From a virus (Duplodnaviria; Heunggongvirae; Uroviricota; Caudoviricetes): a stretch of DNA of 13,947 bases. The stretch lies in IMG/VR virus record IMGVR_UViG_641522650_000013; one strand, given 5' to 3'. The stretch's first letter is position 1. Each line of letters begins with the position of its first letter. Below, piece by piece: positions 1-8,554 of this stretch. Below the pieces are notes generated by a model, which ran no database searches, was not told where the DNA came from, and saw nothing but the letters and a program-made list of their open reading frames with translations. A program made the position numbers and the translations under genes.

Positions 1-1320
1 ATGAGGTTTGGGTACATTGCTTTGGGTACACCCCCTATTCAAAGTTTGGATATTCGCAAAATGCCAAAACTAACAGACATGCAGATCCGCGCATGGATTA
101 AGAGCGGAGAGCGATTCGAGGGGCGGGCAGACGGTAACGGTTTATACCTACGTTACCGTGAAGCCGACAAAACCCCCACATGGAGATTCCGCTATAAACT
201 CGCAGGGAAGTCCCGCGCCATGCTAATTGGTTCGTATAGCGAGCTATCACTATCAAAGGCCAGAGAGACAGCCAAAGAGCTATCGGCTCGCGTTGCGCTG
301 GGCTATGACGTTGCAGGAGAGAAGCAGAAGCACAAAACCGAAGCACTGGCGAAGATGGAAGCAGAGAAGAACGCTATGCGCGTTTCAGAGCTTGCCGCTG
401 AATACTTTGAGCGTCAGATCCTCCCGCGCTGGAAGCACCCCGATATACTCCGCCGCCGTATCGACAAAGATATAAACCCCTGCATTGGCAGCATGAAGGT
501 AGAGGACGTGAAACCGCGCCATATCGATGACATGCTGAAAGGTATTGTTGACCGTGGAGCGCCGACCATAGCAACGGACGTGCTGAGATGGACGCGCCGC
601 ATATTCGACTACGGAATCAAACGGCACGCGCTAGAGATTAACCCCTGTTCAGCCTTTGAGGTGGCAGACGCCGGAGGGAAAGAAGCTGCCCGTGACCGCT
701 GGTTAACCCGCGATGAGTTAATCCAGCTATTCAAAGCCATGCGCACGGCTAAGGGATTCAGTCGCCAGAACGAAATCACGTTCAAATTACTGTTAGCGTT
801 ATGCGTCCGCAAAATGGAATTATGCGCCGCACGATGGGAAGAGTTTGATTTAGATGGTGCGGTATGGCATTTGCCGGAAGAACGCAGCAAAAACGGAGAC
901 CCTATTGATATACCTCTACCTTCCCCAGCCGTTGAATGGTTGAGAGAGCTACACACCTTTTCATGTAATAGCGCATGGGTGCTTCCGGCCAGGAAGATGC
1001 AAAACAGAATGATCCCACATATTCAGGAAAGCACTTTACCCGTAGCACTGGCTAAGGTTCGCGCCGAAATGCCGGATGTGCCTAATTTCACGATTCACGA
1101 CTTTCGACGCACCGCACGTACTCATTTAGCAGCGTTGGGTGTTGATCCTGTTGTGGCGGAACGATGCCTCAATCATCGCATTAAGGGCGTAGAGGGGATT
1201 TATAACCGCCATCAGTATTTTGATGAGCGTAAAGCAGCACTGGCACAGTGGGCTGATCTGCTAGTGGCACTGGAAAGCGGAAAAGACTACAACGTAACGC
1301 CTCTCAGAAGGGCGAACTAA
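1..1320 (+). CDS. int: P4-type tyrosine integrase (site-specific recombinase)
   Basis: 439-aa ORF open from the window edge. N-terminal region from Met at 61 (MPKLTDMQIRAW...GNGLYLRY...WRFRYK) has the typical P4/CP4-57 integrase arm-binding pattern; C-terminal catalytic region carries HDFRRT (HxxR) and GIYNRHQY (Tyr). Biological start is probably ATG 61; 1-60 may be a 5' extension. Confidence 0.9.
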   Translation: MRFGYIALGTPPIQSLDIRKMPKLTDMQIRAWIKSGERFEGRADGNGLYLRYREADKTPTWRFRYKLAGKSRAMLIGSYSELSLSKARETAKELSARVALGYDVAGEKQKHKTEALAKMEAEKNAMRVSELAAEYFERQILPRWKHPDILRRRIDKDINPCIGSMKVEDVKPRHIDDMLKGIVDRGAPTIATDVLRWTRRIFDYGIKRHALEINPCSAFEVADAGGKEAARDRWLTRDELIQLFKAMRTAKGFSRQNEITFKLLLALCVRKMELCAARWEEFDLDGAVWHLPEERSKNGDPIDIPLPSPAVEWLRELHTFSCNSAWVLPARKMQNRMIPHIQESTLPVALAKVRAEMPDVPNFTIHDFRRTARTHLAALGVDPVVAERCLNHRIKGVEGIYNRHQYFDERKAALAQWADLLVALESGKDYNVTPLRRAN

Positions 1321-1701
1321 CTGAATAGATTGAGCCTAGCTCGACGGGGCGAAAAGCGGGAAGCCTTACCGCCTGGCTCAATCACAAAATAAGGCGCAGC
1401 GTAAAAGGTGACGCAATGAAAAAATTACCACCCGCCCCTTTTTTCAGGCTTAACAGAGCAGCCGAATTATTAGAAATAGATATTGATGATCTTTTGATTA
1501 TGGCGGCGGCAGAATCTATATATTTGAGCGCGTACCTTTGCGGCTACGACGGCACATTACATAGCATCGCGAGTCTTTACCGCAATTGCTCTTTATTCCC
1601 AGACGTCAAAGAAGACTGCTTATTACTTGCCGACATAATCACTGAAGTAGAGGACGAAAAAAGCTTTAAGGCAGGCGTTGTAAATCATATAGATTGCCAT
1701 G

Positions 1702-1710
1702 TGCTTGGGC
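1702..1710. repeat. IS1 target-site duplication, left copy (TGCTTGGGC)
   Basis: Identical 9-mer immediately flanks both IS1 ends. Confidence 0.9.
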
Positions 1711-1725
1711 GGTAATGACTCCAAC

Positions 1726-2229
1726 TTACTGATAGTGTTTTATGTTCAGATAATGCCCGATGACCTTGTCATGCAGCTCCACCGATTTTGAGAACGACAG
1801 TGACTTCCGTCCCAGCCTTGCCAGATGTTGTCTCAGATTCAGATTATGTCGCTCAATGCGCTGAGTGTAACGCTTGCTGATAACGTGCAGCTTTCCCTTC
1901 AGGCGTGATTCATACAGCGGCCAGCCATCCGTCATCCATACCACGACCTCAAAGGCCGACAGCAGGCTCAGAAGACGCTCCAGTGTGGCCAGAGTGCGTT
2001 CACCGAAGACGTGCGCCACAACCGTCCTCCGTATCCTGTCATACGCGTAAAACAGCCAGCGCTGACGTGATTTAGCACCGACGTAGCCCCACTGTTCGTC
2101 CATTTCAGCGCAGACAATCACATCACTGCCCGGTTGTATGCGCGAGGTTACCGACTGCGGCCTGAGTTTTTTAAGTGACGTAAAACCGTGTTGAGGCCAA
2201 CGCCCATAATGCGTGCACTGGCGCGACAT
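1726..2229 (-). CDS. insB: IS1 InsB transposase (normally expressed as InsAB' by -1 frameshift)
   Basis: 167-aa product ...[56 protein letters not shown]... matches IS1 InsB. Confidence 0.95.
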
Positions 2230-2423
2230 CCGACGCCATTCATGGCCATATCAATGATTTTCTGGTGCGTACCGGGCTGAGAGGCGGTGTAAGTGAACTG
2301 TAGTTGCCATGTTTTACGGCAATGAGAGCAGAGATAGCGCTGATGTCCGGCAGTGCTTTTGCCGTTACGCACCACGCCTTCAGTAGCGGAGCAGGAAGGA
2401 CATCTGATGGAAATGGAAGCCAC
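2148..2423 (-). CDS. insA: IS1 InsA
   Basis: 91-aa product [40 protein letters not shown]... matches IS1 InsA including the zinc-finger cysteines. Confidence 0.95.
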
Positions 2424-2478
2424 GCAAGCACCTTAAAATCACCATCATACACTAAATCAGTAAGTTGGCAGCATTACC

Positions 2479-2487
2479 TGCTTGGGC
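2479..2487. repeat. IS1 target-site duplication, right copy (TGCTTGGGC)
   Basis: Identical to 1702-1710. Confidence 0.9.
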
Positions 2488-3042
2488 TATGGCATGTTAA
2501 CGCCTCCTATATACTCGACATCGCAGGGCTTGATTCTATTGACACTCCCGCACGCATATTCAGCCCCGCACACAGAAAAAGAGAACTAGACGTAAGTGCG
2601 AATTATTATTTTTTTCTCGATTATACAAAACATGCCTTCCACGAAATATCCGTAGAGGATTTGTACATAACAAGGCCGTGGGTTGAATATATCGGCGAAT
2701 GCATGGACAAAAACCAGCCCATATACAGCCCCGAAACTCGCATAAACTTACAAGCTCTTTATGAGGATGTTAAAAACGTTGAGCACGGAAACAGAGAGCG
2801 CCACAGGCAAAAGCGCGAAATTTGCCTCTTGGCGTTGATTTATGTGAAGCGGCACTACCCAGAAGAGTGTAAAGGGAAGAACGGGAAGGAAACCAACGAA
2901 GCATGGGCGAACGCCACAATAAACCACTGGGCGCTTTTGGGGGGCGGCTATGATGAGCCATCCATAGATTACCTGAAGAAACTCATAGCCGACGCAGACA
3001 GAACACCGGAAGAACGCACCACGGCAGGGAAAAAAAGGTGAT

Positions 3043-3072
3043 AGTAAATTTTACTATCACGATAGTAAAAAA
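3043..3072. promoter_or_regulatory. Candidate operator: perfect 9-bp inverted repeat GATAGTAAA-t-TTTACTATC followed by a third direct copy of GATAGTAAA
   Basis: Read directly: GATAGTAAA at 3043-3051, its reverse complement at 3053-3061, another GATAGTAAA at 3064-3072, in the intergenic region upstream of alpA. Confidence 0.35.
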
Positions 3073-3153
3073 TACGATCATTCCTTTTTGAGCGTGCACG
3101 CCATTAAATCCCCGTAACGAAGCAACAACTATCGCTAAGAGGTTACGGGAATC

Positions 3154-3357
3154 ATGAACATCGACACTATCCCTACAAAAGGCTATATCAGACGCTTCCG
3201 CCTGGCTGAATTGCTGGGCGTTAGTGTATCCACCATCGACCGTAAAGTAAGAAACGGTTCACTACCACGTCCGGTAAAGCTGGGAGAAAAAATAACTGCG
3301 TTTGATGCGGTTGAGATTCACAACTGGCTGGCAGAACGCCGCGGGAAGGTGGCCTGA
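3154..3357 (+). CDS. alpA: AlpA-family helix-turn-helix transcriptional regulator
   Basis: 67-aa ORF; the motif LAELLGVSVSTIDRKVRNGSLPRPVKLG...FDAVEIHNWL is the typical AlpA/prophage CP4-57 regulator pattern. SD AAGAGG upstream; stop overlaps the next start (TGATG). Confidence 0.8.
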   Translation: MNIDTIPTKGYIRRFRLAELLGVSVSTIDRKVRNGSLPRPVKLGEKITAFDAVEIHNWLAERRGKVA

Positions 3358-3788
3358 TGGAAAAGAAAAACCGCCCATTACAGGCGGCTAATTCAGATAT
3401 TCGCGTATCTGATGTTACGCCCCTTACAAAATCCCTTCAAGCACCAAAGCGCACACCGAAAAAGCATCGTGCCAGAGTCTATATGCTGCGTACTGGTATA
3501 GAGGGATGGACAGAAAATGACATTCTGCGTTATTGCCGCCTTTCGTCTGGAAGGAACTACGCCAGCGAGTTAGAGCGCAGGCTTGATATTCAGCTTGAGC
3601 GTATAGACGAAAAGAACCCCGACGGGATAGGGCCACATTTACGCTATCGCTTTACCGGGCGCGGTGACGTTCTAAAAGTTATTCGGCTTGTGAACCATAA
3701 CGCCGACGCTGGCGGCTATCAGGGACTTTCTCAGCCTGAAATTGCCGACATTCTCAATCTATACCCGGACAATCTCACCGCCGCATAA
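3357..3788 (+). CDS. Hypothetical protein, 143 aa, translationally coupled to alpA
   Basis: ORF with start overlapping the alpA stop; basic N-terminus; no family recognised. Confidence 0.6.
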   Translation: MEKKNRPLQAANSDIRVSDVTPLTKSLQAPKRTPKKHRARVYMLRTGIEGWTENDILRYCRLSSGRNYASELERRLDIQLERIDEKNPDGIGPHLRYRFTGRGDVLKVIRLVNHNADAGGYQGLSQPEIADILNLYPDNLTAA

Positions 3789-3801
3789 CGGAGCCGAAAA
3801 T

Positions 3802-4419
3802 ATGACTATCGAAAAAAGCCGATTCAGTTCGGGGGCCGCCCCGCAACCCAACGTTAACACGGGAGTAATTAACGGCAACGACTTTGCCGCTATTGTTCCC
3901 GTTATTGCCGGACGCATTGGCGGGCGTGAAGCCAATATTGTGAGCGCTAAGGCGTTGCATAAAGCGCTGGGGGTGGGCCGCGACTTTACTAACTGGATTA
4001 AAGGCCGAATTGACCAGTACGGTTTTATTGCCGGAACCGATTTTATCCGTGTTGAAAATTTGAGCACGCCAAAACGGGCGAGCGCAAAAACTCGCCAGCA
4101 AATAGAGCATGATTACCTGCTATCGCTGGATATGGCTAAAGAAGTGGCAATGGTTGAACGCAACGAGCAGGGCCGCGCTATCCGCCGTTATTTCATCCAG
4201 TGCGAGGAAGAATTACAGCGTAGCGTGCCTGAAATCGCCGCCCGCTATCGTCGCCAGCTAAAAGCCCGTCTCAGTGCCGCAAACAACTTTAAGCCAATGT
4301 GCGATGCGCTGAATATGGCCCGTGCCGAGATGGGCAAAACGACGCAGCAGCGCCACTACAGCAACGAGAGCAACATGATCGCCCGTATCGTGCTGGGTGG
4401 CATGACGGCGAAGCAGTGA
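3802..4419 (+). CDS. Phage antirepressor, AntA-domain protein
   Basis: Start ATG 3802 preceded by GGAG; contains KALHKALGVGRDFTNWIKGRIDQYGFIAGTDF and LSLDMAKEVAMVERNEQGRAIRRYFIQCEE, typical AntA/antirepressor motifs. The ORF-track start at 3742 overlaps the previous gene and is less likely. Confidence 0.75.
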   Translation: MTIEKSRFSSGAAPQPNVNTGVINGNDFAAIVPVIAGRIGGREANIVSAKALHKALGVGRDFTNWIKGRIDQYGFIAGTDFIRVENLSTPKRASAKTRQQIEHDYLLSLDMAKEVAMVERNEQGRAIRRYFIQCEEELQRSVPEIAARYRRQLKARLSAANNFKPMCDALNMARAEMGKTTQQRHYSNESNMIARIVLGGMTAKQ

Positions 4420-4458
4420 GCGCAGGCAAATGGCATTACTGGCGAACCACGGGACAGC

Positions 4459-4611
4459 ATGAACGCAGCACAGCTTGAACACCTCGCCTATCTCGAAAGC
4501 ACCAATATCACGTTAATTGATATGGGCATGGAATATGAGCAGCGCAAAGGAGAACTCACCCGCCTGTCGCAACGCTGGCTCGCTAAACGTCTGGAGGTAA
4601 ACCATGCGTAA
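4459..4611 (+). CDS. Possible small ORF (50 aa)
   Basis: ATG-initiated ORF not in the track (under 60 aa); its stop overlaps the start of the next ORF (ATGCGTAA). Weak SD. Confidence 0.3.
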   Translation: MNAAQLEHLAYLESTNITLIDMGMEYEQRKGELTRLSQRWLAKRLEVNHA

Positions 4612-4786
4612 CCACAATCCGATGCCGGGAAGCCGTTACAAGGATTCGCACGGGGCTGTAGTGACCGTTGAGCGCGTCGAGCATAACCGAGTGACCTTTT
4701 ACCGCGAGGGCTATCAGTCGCCATGTGTTCAGCCTTTGGAGAGATTCGTTAATGAGTTCGTGGAGGTGCGCCGTGATACTGAATGA
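4604..4786 (+). CDS. Small hypothetical protein (60 aa)
   Basis: GGAGG 6 nt upstream of ATG 4604; product MRNHNPMPGSRYKDSHGAVVTVERVEHNRVTFYREGYQSPCVQP... resembles short conserved prophage proteins, family not confirmed. Confidence 0.5.
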   Translation: MRNHNPMPGSRYKDSHGAVVTVERVEHNRVTFYREGYQSPCVQPLERFVNEFVEVRRDTE

Positions 4787-5073
4787 ACCTGCCGCCCAGA
4801 AAGAAGCCTTTAATCTGGCTGGCCTGTTAACAAATGTTAACCCTTACAACCTTATAAAACCTGATATTGATACCGCAGCGCCCGGAGTTCCGTTACCAGT
4901 ACGCGAGGCGCTTACCCTCAACAAAAAGATGGTGAGCCGTGCACAGGAAAAACTCTTAAAGGGTTACGGTTTTATCTGGTATGACCACCTAGCAGAGAAA
5001 AGCTGTTATAGTTCAAGCGTTGCTGCAAAATCAGCAACCGGGCGTGGAAACCCGAACACACTCAGGGCGACAC

Positions 5074-5096
5074 AGACGCCGAAAGCGTCTTTTTTT
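5074..5096 (+). terminator. Rho-independent terminator (6-bp GC-rich stem AGACGC/GCGTCT, loop CGAAA, then T6)
   Basis: Read directly from the sequence; lies inside the apparent ORF 4725-5561, arguing that ORF is not one real gene. Confidence 0.55.
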
Positions 5097-5146
5097 GTGT
5101 CCGATCACTACGCACATCAAATCAGCGGCCTAGTCCGTACTGTATC

Positions 5147-5229
5147 AATGGTGGCGTTAGTGGGGCTACGTTCGCGTAGGCCGGTTTCCTTTGTGTCCGG
5201 TATTTCCACCCCTGCTAACGTCACCGCCA
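5147..5229 (+). ncRNA. Candidate structured antisense RNA (P1 C4 / P4 CI-like) upstream of the icd-like gene
   Basis: Closing stem 5149-5165 with 5206-5227 (about 14 bp, one mismatch, one bulge); inner hairpin CTACG-UUCG-CGTAG (5166-5179); second hairpin CCGG...CCGG (5181-5200) whose loop holds TCCTTTGTGT (5187-5196), perfectly complementary to ACACAAAGGA (5266-5275) across the icd-like SD. Boundaries approximate. Confidence 0.4.
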
Positions 5230-5285
5230 TTTCAGAGCGTGGAAACTCAGGCGGTGACTCCTTAAACACAAAGGAGGCTGCCGCT

Positions 5286-5541
5286 ATGCTGGCTACTACC
5301 CCTACCCAAAAACCGCAATTTATCTGGATTATCGCCGCAGTTCGCCGCGATTGCCCGACAATTACCGCCAAAATTCATCATATTGCTGCCGAGTCTGAAC
5401 GCGATGCTCGCCGTTCTCTGGTGCGCGATCACGTCTGCTTTTTTGCTGGTCGTATCCGCATGGAGGTGGTGAAGTGGCACACTGAATTTGGCCACCTGAA
5501 CAGAGGTGATATGCTCACCTCAGAACAACACAGGTGCTCCA

Positions 5542-5561
<20 letters not shown>
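5286..5561 (+). CDS. Icd-like (host cell division inhibitor-like) small protein, C-terminus replaced by IS911-derived sequence
   Basis: Strong SD AAGGAGG 8 nt upstream of ATG 5286; product [57 protein letters not shown]... resembles Icd-like proteins as I recall them. IS911 begins at 5470, so residues after ...RMEV come from the IS. Reconstructed native end is ...RMEVAHD (61 aa). Confidence 0.55.
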
Positions 5562-6710
<1,149 letters not shown>

Positions 6711-6725
6711 CCACTTCAGTGGCAC

Positions 6726-8212: not shown

Positions 8213-8554
8213 ATGATTACTAAAAATTTCCGACTGAATGCGCTGGCGAATAAGTATGCGGCAGCACTGTATAACCACATTACTTCCACCAGCGGCGGGG
8301 ACTATTTCATGATTGATGCGGACGGCCTCGCCGTCCGTGTGGAAATCGTCAATGGAGTAAAAGGCGTTCGCAGCCTGATTGATAGCTACGCACTGGCAGC
8401 CATGAAAGTGCGCTACCCGCAGTGGGAAATCGTGGGGATCGAGCTTCTTGATCGTTGCGTCACTAAGGACGGATTGACTGACATCGGGCGCGAGATATGG
8501 CAAAGCATGATTAATGATATGGGCGCGACCGTGGCAGGAGGCAACCATGCGTAA
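8213..8554 (+). CDS. Hypothetical protein (113 aa)
   Basis: SD GAGGGG then ATG 8213; stop overlaps the primase start. Confidence 0.6.
   Translation: MITKNFRLNALANKYAAALYNHITSTSGGDYFMIDADGLAVRVEIVNGVKGVRSLIDSYALAAMKVRYPQWEIVGIELLDRCVTKDGLTDIGREIWQSMINDMGATVAGGNHA

Follow-up and report, generated by a model that had tools for sequence, protein, structure and literature searches.

An IS1 insertion in a PICI-type satellite of Shigella boydii splits a gene of an uncharacterized family located between int and alpA

The DNA considered here is a stretch of 13,947 nucleotides, the IMG/VR virus record IMGVR_UViG_641522650_000013 (referred to, at its full length, as the window), in which the insertion sequence (IS) IS1 has transposed into codon 99 of a gene for a protein of 282 amino acids (aa) with the usual 9-bp duplication of its target. 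The gene, called gene X in the following and its product X, lies between the integrase gene int and the regulatory gene alpA of an island, and its interruption is almost certainly a canonical IS1 knock-out of a genuine gene, within a decaying satellite of Shigella boydii of the type known as phage-inducible chromosomal islands (PICIs). The split severs the N-terminal winged-helix-like domain predicted for X from the remainder of the protein and leaves a null or truncated allele.

IS1 Insertion and the Intact Allele of Gene X

The interrupting element occupies positions 1711-2478 on the minus strand and is recognized as IS1 by its identity to annotated copies, its inverted repeats and its open reading frames (ORFs). 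Its 768 bp are 100% identical to many copies annotated as "IS1 family transposase", and a near-full-length copy is present in 4951 of 5426 E. coli genomes. The terminal inverted repeats are imperfect (GGTAATGACTCCAACTTACTGAT / GGTAATGCTGCCAACTTACTGAT, with 20 of 23 positions matching), and the overlapping frames of insA (91 aa, 2423-2148) and insB (167 aa, 2229-1726) are both read on the minus strand within the element. Comparison of the letters identified only two occurrences of the 9-mer TGCTTGGGC in the window, the left copy of the target-site duplication at 1702-1710 and the right copy at 2479-2487 (neither assigned to a strand), each abutting an IS1 end. The probability of a 9-bp match at such a fixed pair of positions by chance is ~4e-6, and a duplication of this length is usual for IS1; the perfect 9-bp duplication around an IS1 at 1711-2478, reported in the original prediction from the letters of the sequence, is thereby borne out.

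IS1 together with one duplicate measures 777 bp (3 x 259), and the in silico deletion of IS1 and one copy of TGCTTGGGC yields an ORF of 849 nt, coding for 282 aa plus a stop, in which ORF 1416-1715 is fused in frame to the native part of ORF 2304-3041. The reconstruction proposed earlier was exact, save that its length of ~283 aa counts codons including the stop, the protein itself having 282 aa. The 5' part of the gene (1416-1710, plus strand, from the ORF reading) comprises codons 1-98 and the first base of codon 99 and, as it stands, runs into IS1 to give a 99-aa product with its stop at 1713-1715, while the 3' part (2488-3041, plus strand) extends from the rest of codon 99 to the native stop and includes a conserved helical C-terminal domain at residues ~196-282. 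ORF 2304-3041 as listed is indeed an artifact, since it starts at a TTG inside IS1. The insertion point, codon 99, falls within a near-invariant G98-L-W100 motif of the protein.

The empty site was found in the Logan contig L002, in which window positions 1-1710 correspond to L002 8586-10295 (99.8% identity) and 2479-4613 to L002 10287-12421 (99.9%), the left and right blocks overlapping by exactly 9 bp, which are the duplicated bases. An uninterrupted gene X with the same exact 9-bp overlap is also carried by the IMG/VR contig L008 (UViG_2690316243_000015), and the intact allele in Shigella flexneri-type contigs is 99.8% identical, with its junction exactly at the reconstructed point. The search for intact alleles in related genomes that had been suggested as a check was thus answered by their discovery, in neighborhoods that read int-X-alpA. 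Together, the 849-nt fusion and the empty sites of L002 and L008 establish the flanking ORFs as the two halves of one in-frame gene, as had been claimed.

An alternative, to which a vanishingly small probability was assigned, is that the flanking ORFs have nothing to do with each other and their common frame is fortuitous, or that the reconstructed ORF is not a real gene. It is contradicted by the many assemblies that hold an intact 282-aa ORF with a junction identical to the reconstruction, as the intact allele joins the halves precisely at the duplication, and by end-to-end homologs in the same slot with 33-56% identity; full-length homologs range from 281 to 334 aa. A family of 136 members retrieved by hidden Markov model, and an AlphaFold2 model of X with a confident mean predicted local distance difference test score (pLDDT) of 83, point in the same direction. 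Nothing was found in favor of two unrelated ORFs, and that reading is excluded, as are both of the outcomes that the original prediction had named as refuting it.

The split allele is a lineage-specific event fixed in S. boydii, while S. flexneri retains the intact gene, because the split fragment is found in S. boydii contigs and the intact allele in S. flexneri contigs. The 99-aa N-terminal product corresponds to WP_000735990.1, present on 267 contigs named Shigella or S. boydii, and the C-terminal fragments of ~186 aa are annotated in S. boydii as partial hypothetical proteins. In S. flexneri the 282-aa protein is commonly found intact, its allele P0172 occurring on 729 contigs named Shigella or S. 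flexneri.

The X Family and Its Slot between int and alpA

The protein had been described as unfamiliar, and this impression holds: reconstructed X has no match in Pfam, PHROGs or NCBIfam, and in PADLOC (PADLOC-DB v2) only a chance-level one, to PDC-M48B (E=0.016). Close homologs are few, the E. coli 042 protein WP_000735991.1 (281 aa) sharing 56% identity over the whole length and a homolog from Enterobacter hormaechei (312 aa) 33%. A profile search of 1.84 billion representatives returned 136 homologs at E<=1e-3, 40 of them at E<=1e-10, nearly all of 260-350 aa and matching over their full length. Of 68 aligned members, none has a convincing match in Pfam (HTH_17 is matched by 1 of the 68, E=0.005), and the same 68 were negative against PADLOC, with no defense family common to the members; 26 of the 68 match phrog_7144, whose function is unannotated, with a best E-value of 8.7e-44. 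The named genera with members are Shigella, Escherichia, Enterobacter, Salmonella, Pectobacterium, Rosenbergiella, Buttiauxella, Serratia, Citrobacter, Tatumella, Phytobacter and Klebsiella. A protein-pattern scan of one-genome-per-species contigs gave chance matches only, and tblastn against phage records returned no match for the Shigella and cq9 alleles and one match, a Klebsiella "phage" record, for the Salmonella-type allele. On these sequence comparisons, X is a member of an uncharacterized Enterobacterales family of the int-alpA slot.

All members whose neighborhood was read stand directly after an integrase, with alpA next wherever the contig continues and the three genes co-oriented. 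The int-X-alpA order spans at least eight genera, three chromosomal attachment sites and one satellite inside a phage record. Next to yicC it was found in E. coli, Shigella, Enterobacter, Salmonella, Pectobacterium and Tatumella, as well as in a partial Klebsiella oxytoca locus showing int-X only, the contig of which ends inside X; the island of Phytobacter is adjacent to mipA, and that of a metagenomic contig is adjacent to ycaO. A separate observation concerns Klebsiella phage P12620-1 (L028, PQ569648.1 88518-101258), which was deposited as the record of a 106-kb phage and in which a block with int, an X-family gene, AntA and a DUF927 primase follows straight after the gene for the terminase large subunit. 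This block may be a helper-embedded PICI or an assembly chimera.

Occupancy of the slot was also assessed in two samples chosen without homology to X, namely E. coli islands sharing the alpA leader (n=2) and species-representative genomes found through the RNA motif described below (n=6, of which 5 were evaluable). Both E. coli islands have ORFs, of 321 and 316 aa, that are remote X relatives (hhalign 99.2% and 98.7%), and in four of the five evaluable genomes an X-family ORF stands right after the motif; in Erwinia psidii (L027) the motif is followed by a 294-aa ORF with no detectable relation to X. Taken together, the two samples have a diverged X-family member in 6 of 7 loci. The earlier view of the gene as an occupant of a variable, integrase-adjacent slot for cargo or defense genes thus stands in part. 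The slot is hypervariable in sequence, and the 5' ends of PICIs are reported to carry immune systems (PMC11364771); it is, however, no free-for-all hotspot, given that the same family occupies those six of seven unbiased loci and that X is set in a constant order of elements, with int and the RF02996 RNA before it and a terminator and alpA after it. The slot is variable, yet reserved for a single, rapidly evolving family that has a putative RNA leader and terminator of its own.

Two other genes were considered as relatives of X and rejected. YfjH of CP4-57 (318 aa), which also lies between intA and alpA, gave an hhalign probability of 0.6% and is on the opposite strand, and EcCIMP1_002 is a different gene, about a tenth of UvrB's size. 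Since EcCICFT073 is helper-inducible without X (PMC6092414), X is a subfamily-specific accessory gene and not a core PICI gene.

Predicted Structure of X

An initial model of X built from 5 sequences was too poor (pLDDT 60) and was replaced by an AlphaFold2 model from a 68-sequence alignment, with a mean pLDDT of 83 and a predicted template modeling score (pTM) of 0.67. In this model, the N-terminus is predicted to form a β-α-α unit (residues 9-31) with long β-hairpins, the middle (~40-150) is variable, β-rich and less confident, and the C-terminus would comprise a helical domain at ~199-268 (pLDDT ~97) followed by a basic tail. The N-terminal part is predicted to be a winged helix resembling those of MerR, Xis and AlpA, and the C-terminal helical domain is predicted to be a conserved orphan. 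When the N-terminal profile was aligned by hhalign to the AlpA of this island, the match was in register but weak (E=7e-4, probability 26%). By inspection, the putative recognition helix is acidic and hydrophobic, with the consensus E-x-x-D-L-L-H-W (E/D-D-L-L-H-W). Sequence searches of the PDB with whole-length, C-terminal and N-terminal profiles returned only noise (designed repeat proteins, eIF2α), and a Foldseek search of the model against PDB and BFVD gave no match at E<=0.001.

Exchange of X Alleles as Cassettes

In E. coli 042 and cq9, the islands match at 99.2% identity from int to the start codon of X and, after a stretch in which nothing aligns, at 99.0% from a point ~43 bp before alpA. 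The identities of Int, X and AlpA in this pair are 99%, 22% and 100%, and the values for the window and E. coli strain 54 are similarly discordant (92%, 22% and 100%). Salmonella and Pectobacterium share 88%, 87% and 79%, whereas the ycaO island and Salmonella share 28%, 42% and 18%. The diverged alleles are nevertheless still homologous (hhalign probabilities of 99.2 and 98.7). By these alignments, X and its terminator are swapped as a cassette between otherwise near-identical islands, and because the Int, X and AlpA identities are uncoupled, the phylogeny of X is independent of both of its neighbors.

This uncoupling argues against a co-evolving partner in recombination and favors a module that interacts with something outside the island. 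It thus bears on the proposal, considered highly improbable, that X is an accessory of site-specific recombination, acting as a recombination directionality factor or an architectural partner of the integrase. Such a role would account for the position of X immediately downstream of int in every context seen, and the predicted N-terminal fold resembles that of excisionases. It is, however, difficult to reconcile with an integrase that is 99% identical where X is 22% identical (042 versus cq9) and 28% identical where X is 42% identical (ycaO island versus Salmonella). Recombination directionality factors are, moreover, usually smaller than 100 aa as opposed to the ~300-aa class of X, and the islands already encode AlpA, a homolog of Xis. 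EcCICFT073 also excises without X (PMC6092414).

RNA Elements Flanking Gene X

The 95-bp spacer between int and X contains the int-alpA RNA motif of Rfam (RF02996), at 1329-1395 on the plus strand, with a score of 60.6 bits against a gathering score of 35.8 and positions 1-71 of the full model matched. The motif ends 20 nt upstream of the X start codon, and its consensus fold has some compensatory pairs. It has the same placement in L001, L010, L012, L014, L015 and L016 and is also present in L023-L025 and L027. In the motif-bearing loci examined, the next gene is never alpA, being instead an X-family ORF in 10 distinct loci and the unrelated ORF of ~294 aa in one (Erwinia psidii). Three further X loci, whose spacers are short or of another kind, lack the motif, as do EcCICFT073 and CP4-57, both of which are without X. 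Because alpA is never the next gene in the motif-bearing loci, RF02996 is linked in these data to X rather than to alpA and is better described, as judged from gene order, as an int-X spacer or leader; it may be a leader or processing element of X.

A long hairpin at 3032-3089 (plus strand) takes in the stop codon of X, with arms of 29 nt, an A-tract on its 5' side and a U-tract on its 3' side. It includes an inner perfect palindrome at 3038-3060 (11+11, GTGATAGTAAA/TTTACTATCAC) and a direct repeat, GATAGTAAA...ATCA, 21 bp apart, and the fold z-score of 3030-3160 is -4.9. Other allele classes of X have a canonical stem-loop with a T-run at the same position, and the hairpin stretch is exchanged along with the X cassette. 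The hairpin is probably the terminator of an int-X unit, which would insulate alpA. Palindromes of the form AYAGTA...TACTRT also follow other X alleles, with the order of the arms reversed in L011; that they are operators for X or AlpA is considered the less likely reading and was not adopted, an RNA hairpin with A- and U-tracts here and canonical terminators elsewhere being the simpler account.

A second hairpin, CCCGTAAC...GTTACGGG (3111-3149, plus strand), lies in the alpA leader between the Shine-Dalgarno region and the alpA ATG. The 41 bp around it are 100% identical in ~106 E. coli genomes with different X alleles, and the changes to its arms in L014 and L015 (Pectobacterium and Tatumella) are symmetrical. 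It may serve to control alpA at the level of translation or transcription.

Candidate Functions of X

For the function of X, the account tentatively preferred, at something short of even confidence, is that X is a phage-facing module of specificity or interference, which is suggested by its accessory distribution, its position adjacent to int, the exchange of its alleles as cassettes, and the variable middle between conserved ends. It fits the report that immune systems are found at the 5' or 3' ends of PICIs (PMC11364771, citing Fillol-Salom 2022). In the model proposed here, X would be produced jointly with the integrase during the resident state of the satellite and would act as an interference or immunity protein, or as a sensor, facing the phage. 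The variable β-rich middle (~40-150) would recognize a phage component, while the conserved N-terminal winged helix and C-terminal helical domain would give a common output, and the IS1 insertion would abolish this activity. The explanation as a whole, combining the IS1 knock-out, the satellite family and the phage-facing module, is regarded as evenly poised between being right and being wrong.

It has to be noted that several points weigh against a phage-facing role. True defense hotspots normally hold many unrelated systems, and here one family fills the slot in six of the seven unbiased loci. No known defense, nuclease, ATPase or toxin domain was found in X, and PADLOC gave a negative result for each of the 68. 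DNA binding by X is not assured, because the predicted recognition helix is acidic. The co-transcription of int and X that the model supposes is suggested by spacing and orientation only; no sigma-70-like promoter was found, which does not by itself demonstrate the absence of one.

In a different model, which is possible but rather doubtful, X regulates the satellite's own cycle as an analog of Stl/Rpr, the master repressor of Gram-positive PICIs. Its winged helix would, on this tentative proposal, hold alpA silent by binding close to its promoter or leader, and the variable middle would bind a helper-phage protein that lifts the repression, which would tie induction to one particular helper; the allele classes of X might then, should so uncertain a scheme hold, be classes of helper specificity. 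Several observations are consistent with such a regulator, among them the predicted MerR/Xis/AlpA-like fold of the N-terminus, the location of X directly upstream of alpA and co-oriented with it in all loci, and the monopoly of one family over the int-alpA slot. The replacement of allelic cassettes recalls phage immunity regions, and the AYAGTA...TACTRT palindromes between X and alpA are exchanged along with X; the global repressor of Gram-negative PICIs and its phage-encoded inducer are, in addition, stated to be unknown (PMC6092414). These palindromes are, however, more simply explained as a terminator hairpin, with an A/U-tract in the window, a stem and T-run elsewhere and reversed arms in L011, and the putative recognition helix is acidic. 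X is also co-oriented with int and alpA, unlike the divergent repressor/operator layout of Stl. The regulator model is further weakened by EcCICFT073, which is without X, and EcCIMP1, which by its published description has only a small unrelated gene in the slot, as both still show helper-dependent induction of alpA (PMC6092414, PMC11773190).

A phage-facing module remains the tentatively preferred account of X. A broader formulation, speculative and rather unlikely as worded, would treat the family as a new, allele-diverse type of phage-recognition protein of enterobacterial PICI-type satellites, either the helper-sensing repressor that controls alpA in this subfamily or a new single-gene anti-phage system, in which the β-domain would set the specificity and RF02996 would be the leader or regulatory element.

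The Satellite Island and Its Decay

The gene order of the island is int - X - alpA - a 143-aa ORF (hyp143) - antA - DUF4222 - an Ash-family gene - small ORFs - primase - ssb. The tyrosine integrase (439 aa, 1-1320, plus strand; Pfam Arm-DNA-bind_3, Phage_int_M and Phage_integrase) is encoded at the left end and points inward, co-oriented with alpA and the primase gene, and intact relatives of the island are integrated directly downstream of yicC. The AlpA-family regulator of the satellite (67 aa, 3154-3357, plus strand) matches Pfam Phage_AlpA / HTH_17, the primase has Zn-ribbon, Toprim and DUF927 domains, and ssb (11681-12115) lies just before an IS2. Matches to the isrK, c4-a1b1 and C4 antisense RNAs are present at 5006-5231 within the region of the Ash-family gene, and C4/isrK-type elements of the same kind are present in L001, L003, L008, L010, L011 and L016; they represent the P1/P4-type immunity RNA system described for the "Bro zones" of PICIs (PMC10111431), where a four-zone organization of the Gram-negative PICIs is described as well. 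The island is, by its gene content, a PICI-type phage satellite, its order fitting the four-zone plan (PMC10111431) and its genes those known from EcCIMP1 (PMC11773190).

No phage structural or lysis genes were found within the 13.9-kb window, the right end of which is cut by IS2 and by the window edge. The relatives differ in this respect, that of E. coli 042 having DUF2824 and ejection-protein genes and that of Salmonella (L012) capsid and protease genes, and their downstream modules vary between DUF927 and D5-type primases. L008 has the same int-X-alpA-antA left arm as the window and 948 bp around ssb that are identical, while its replication module differs and includes a 584-aa primase like that of EcCICFT073; the comparison of the two sequences shows an apparent modular mosaicism among these islands.

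The copy in the window is decayed overall, having suffered four further lesions besides the IS1 insertion in gene X. The gene for the AntA/AntB antirepressor, antA, carries a nonsense change, TGG to TGA, at 4417-4419 relative to the S. flexneri-type contig L002. The Ash-family gene is interrupted by an IS911 at ~5470-6718, which is flanked by GTGG and is 99.7-99.8% identical to annotated copies. The two listed primase ORFs are halves of one pseudogene, because 8514-11306 is one continuous frame, 79% identical in its product to a 918-aa protein of E. coli 042, that is broken by a single in-frame TGA at 9855-9857. An IS2 (IS3 family) extends from ~12613 to the end of the window at 13947, and what lay to the right in the island is either truncated or out of view. 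Because of the nonsense codons in antA and the primase gene and the three IS elements, this S. boydii copy is probably immobile. The accumulation of IS elements together with nonsense mutations is typical of genome decay in Shigella.

Significance

The IS1 insertion is itself routine for a decaying Shigella genome, and annotations as hypothetical proteins exist already for both of the resulting gene fragments. What gives the locus its value is an unannotated family of ~300-aa proteins, encoded at a constant position between int and alpA in many satellites of enterobacteria; this appears to be the gene family actually associated with the orphan Rfam RNA motif RF02996. The family is a candidate for helper sensing by Gram-negative PICIs (PMC6092414) or for the role of a 5' accessory gene (PMC11364771), and if the regulator model were true, X would address the question of the repressor and inducer of Gram-negative PICIs (PMC6092414). 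Natural controls exist in the S. boydii knock-out, the intact S. flexneri allele and the several allele classes of E. coli. This is, in sum, an ordinary insertion in an uncharacterized but tractable gene family.

Comparison with Known Systems

The split gene resembles other Shigella pseudogenes made by IS1, with a canonical element of 768 bp and a target duplication of 9 bp, and nothing is unusual here except that the exact empty-site allele survives in S. flexneri. The phrog_7144 family, matched by other members, leaves the Shigella X allele itself below threshold, and with respect to the "int-alpA" motif RF02996 of Rfam, the window carries a full-length match.

The comparison with Stl/Rpr of the Staphylococcus aureus pathogenicity islands shows shared features, namely a position adjacent to int, high divergence between islands and an N-terminal domain of the helix-turn-helix type (in X a predicted one) combined with a variable part that binds, or in X may bind, a partner (for Stl, PMC6092414). 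X differs from Stl, however, in having no sequence or fold match to it and in being co-oriented with the downstream regulator, whereas Stl is divergent; the proven Gram-negative PICI EcCICFT073 also lacks X, as does EcCIMP1 according to its published description. With the 5'-end accessory and immune regions of PICIs (Fillol-Salom et al. 2022, as summarized in PMC11364771), X shares the int-adjacent position, the cassette-like exchange and an extreme divergence between otherwise identical islands; it differs in that its slot is held almost exclusively by one family and that it has no match to a known defense system.

The closest likeness of the island as a whole is to the Gram-negative PICIs EcCICFT073 and EcCIMP1, with which it shares the co-oriented int, alpA, AntA/Bro, Ash and primase genes followed by SSB (PMC6092414, PMC10111431, PMC11773190). 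The C4/isrK immunity RNAs in the Bro zone are likewise shared, and no structural or lysis genes occur within the window; the copy here is a defective one. In contrast to the window island with its gene X, EcCICFT073 has no gene between int and alpA, and EcCIMP1 has, by published description, only a small unrelated gene there. The X-bearing islands form a subset of the PICIs whose integration zone additionally holds a hypervariable gene and the RF02996 RNA.

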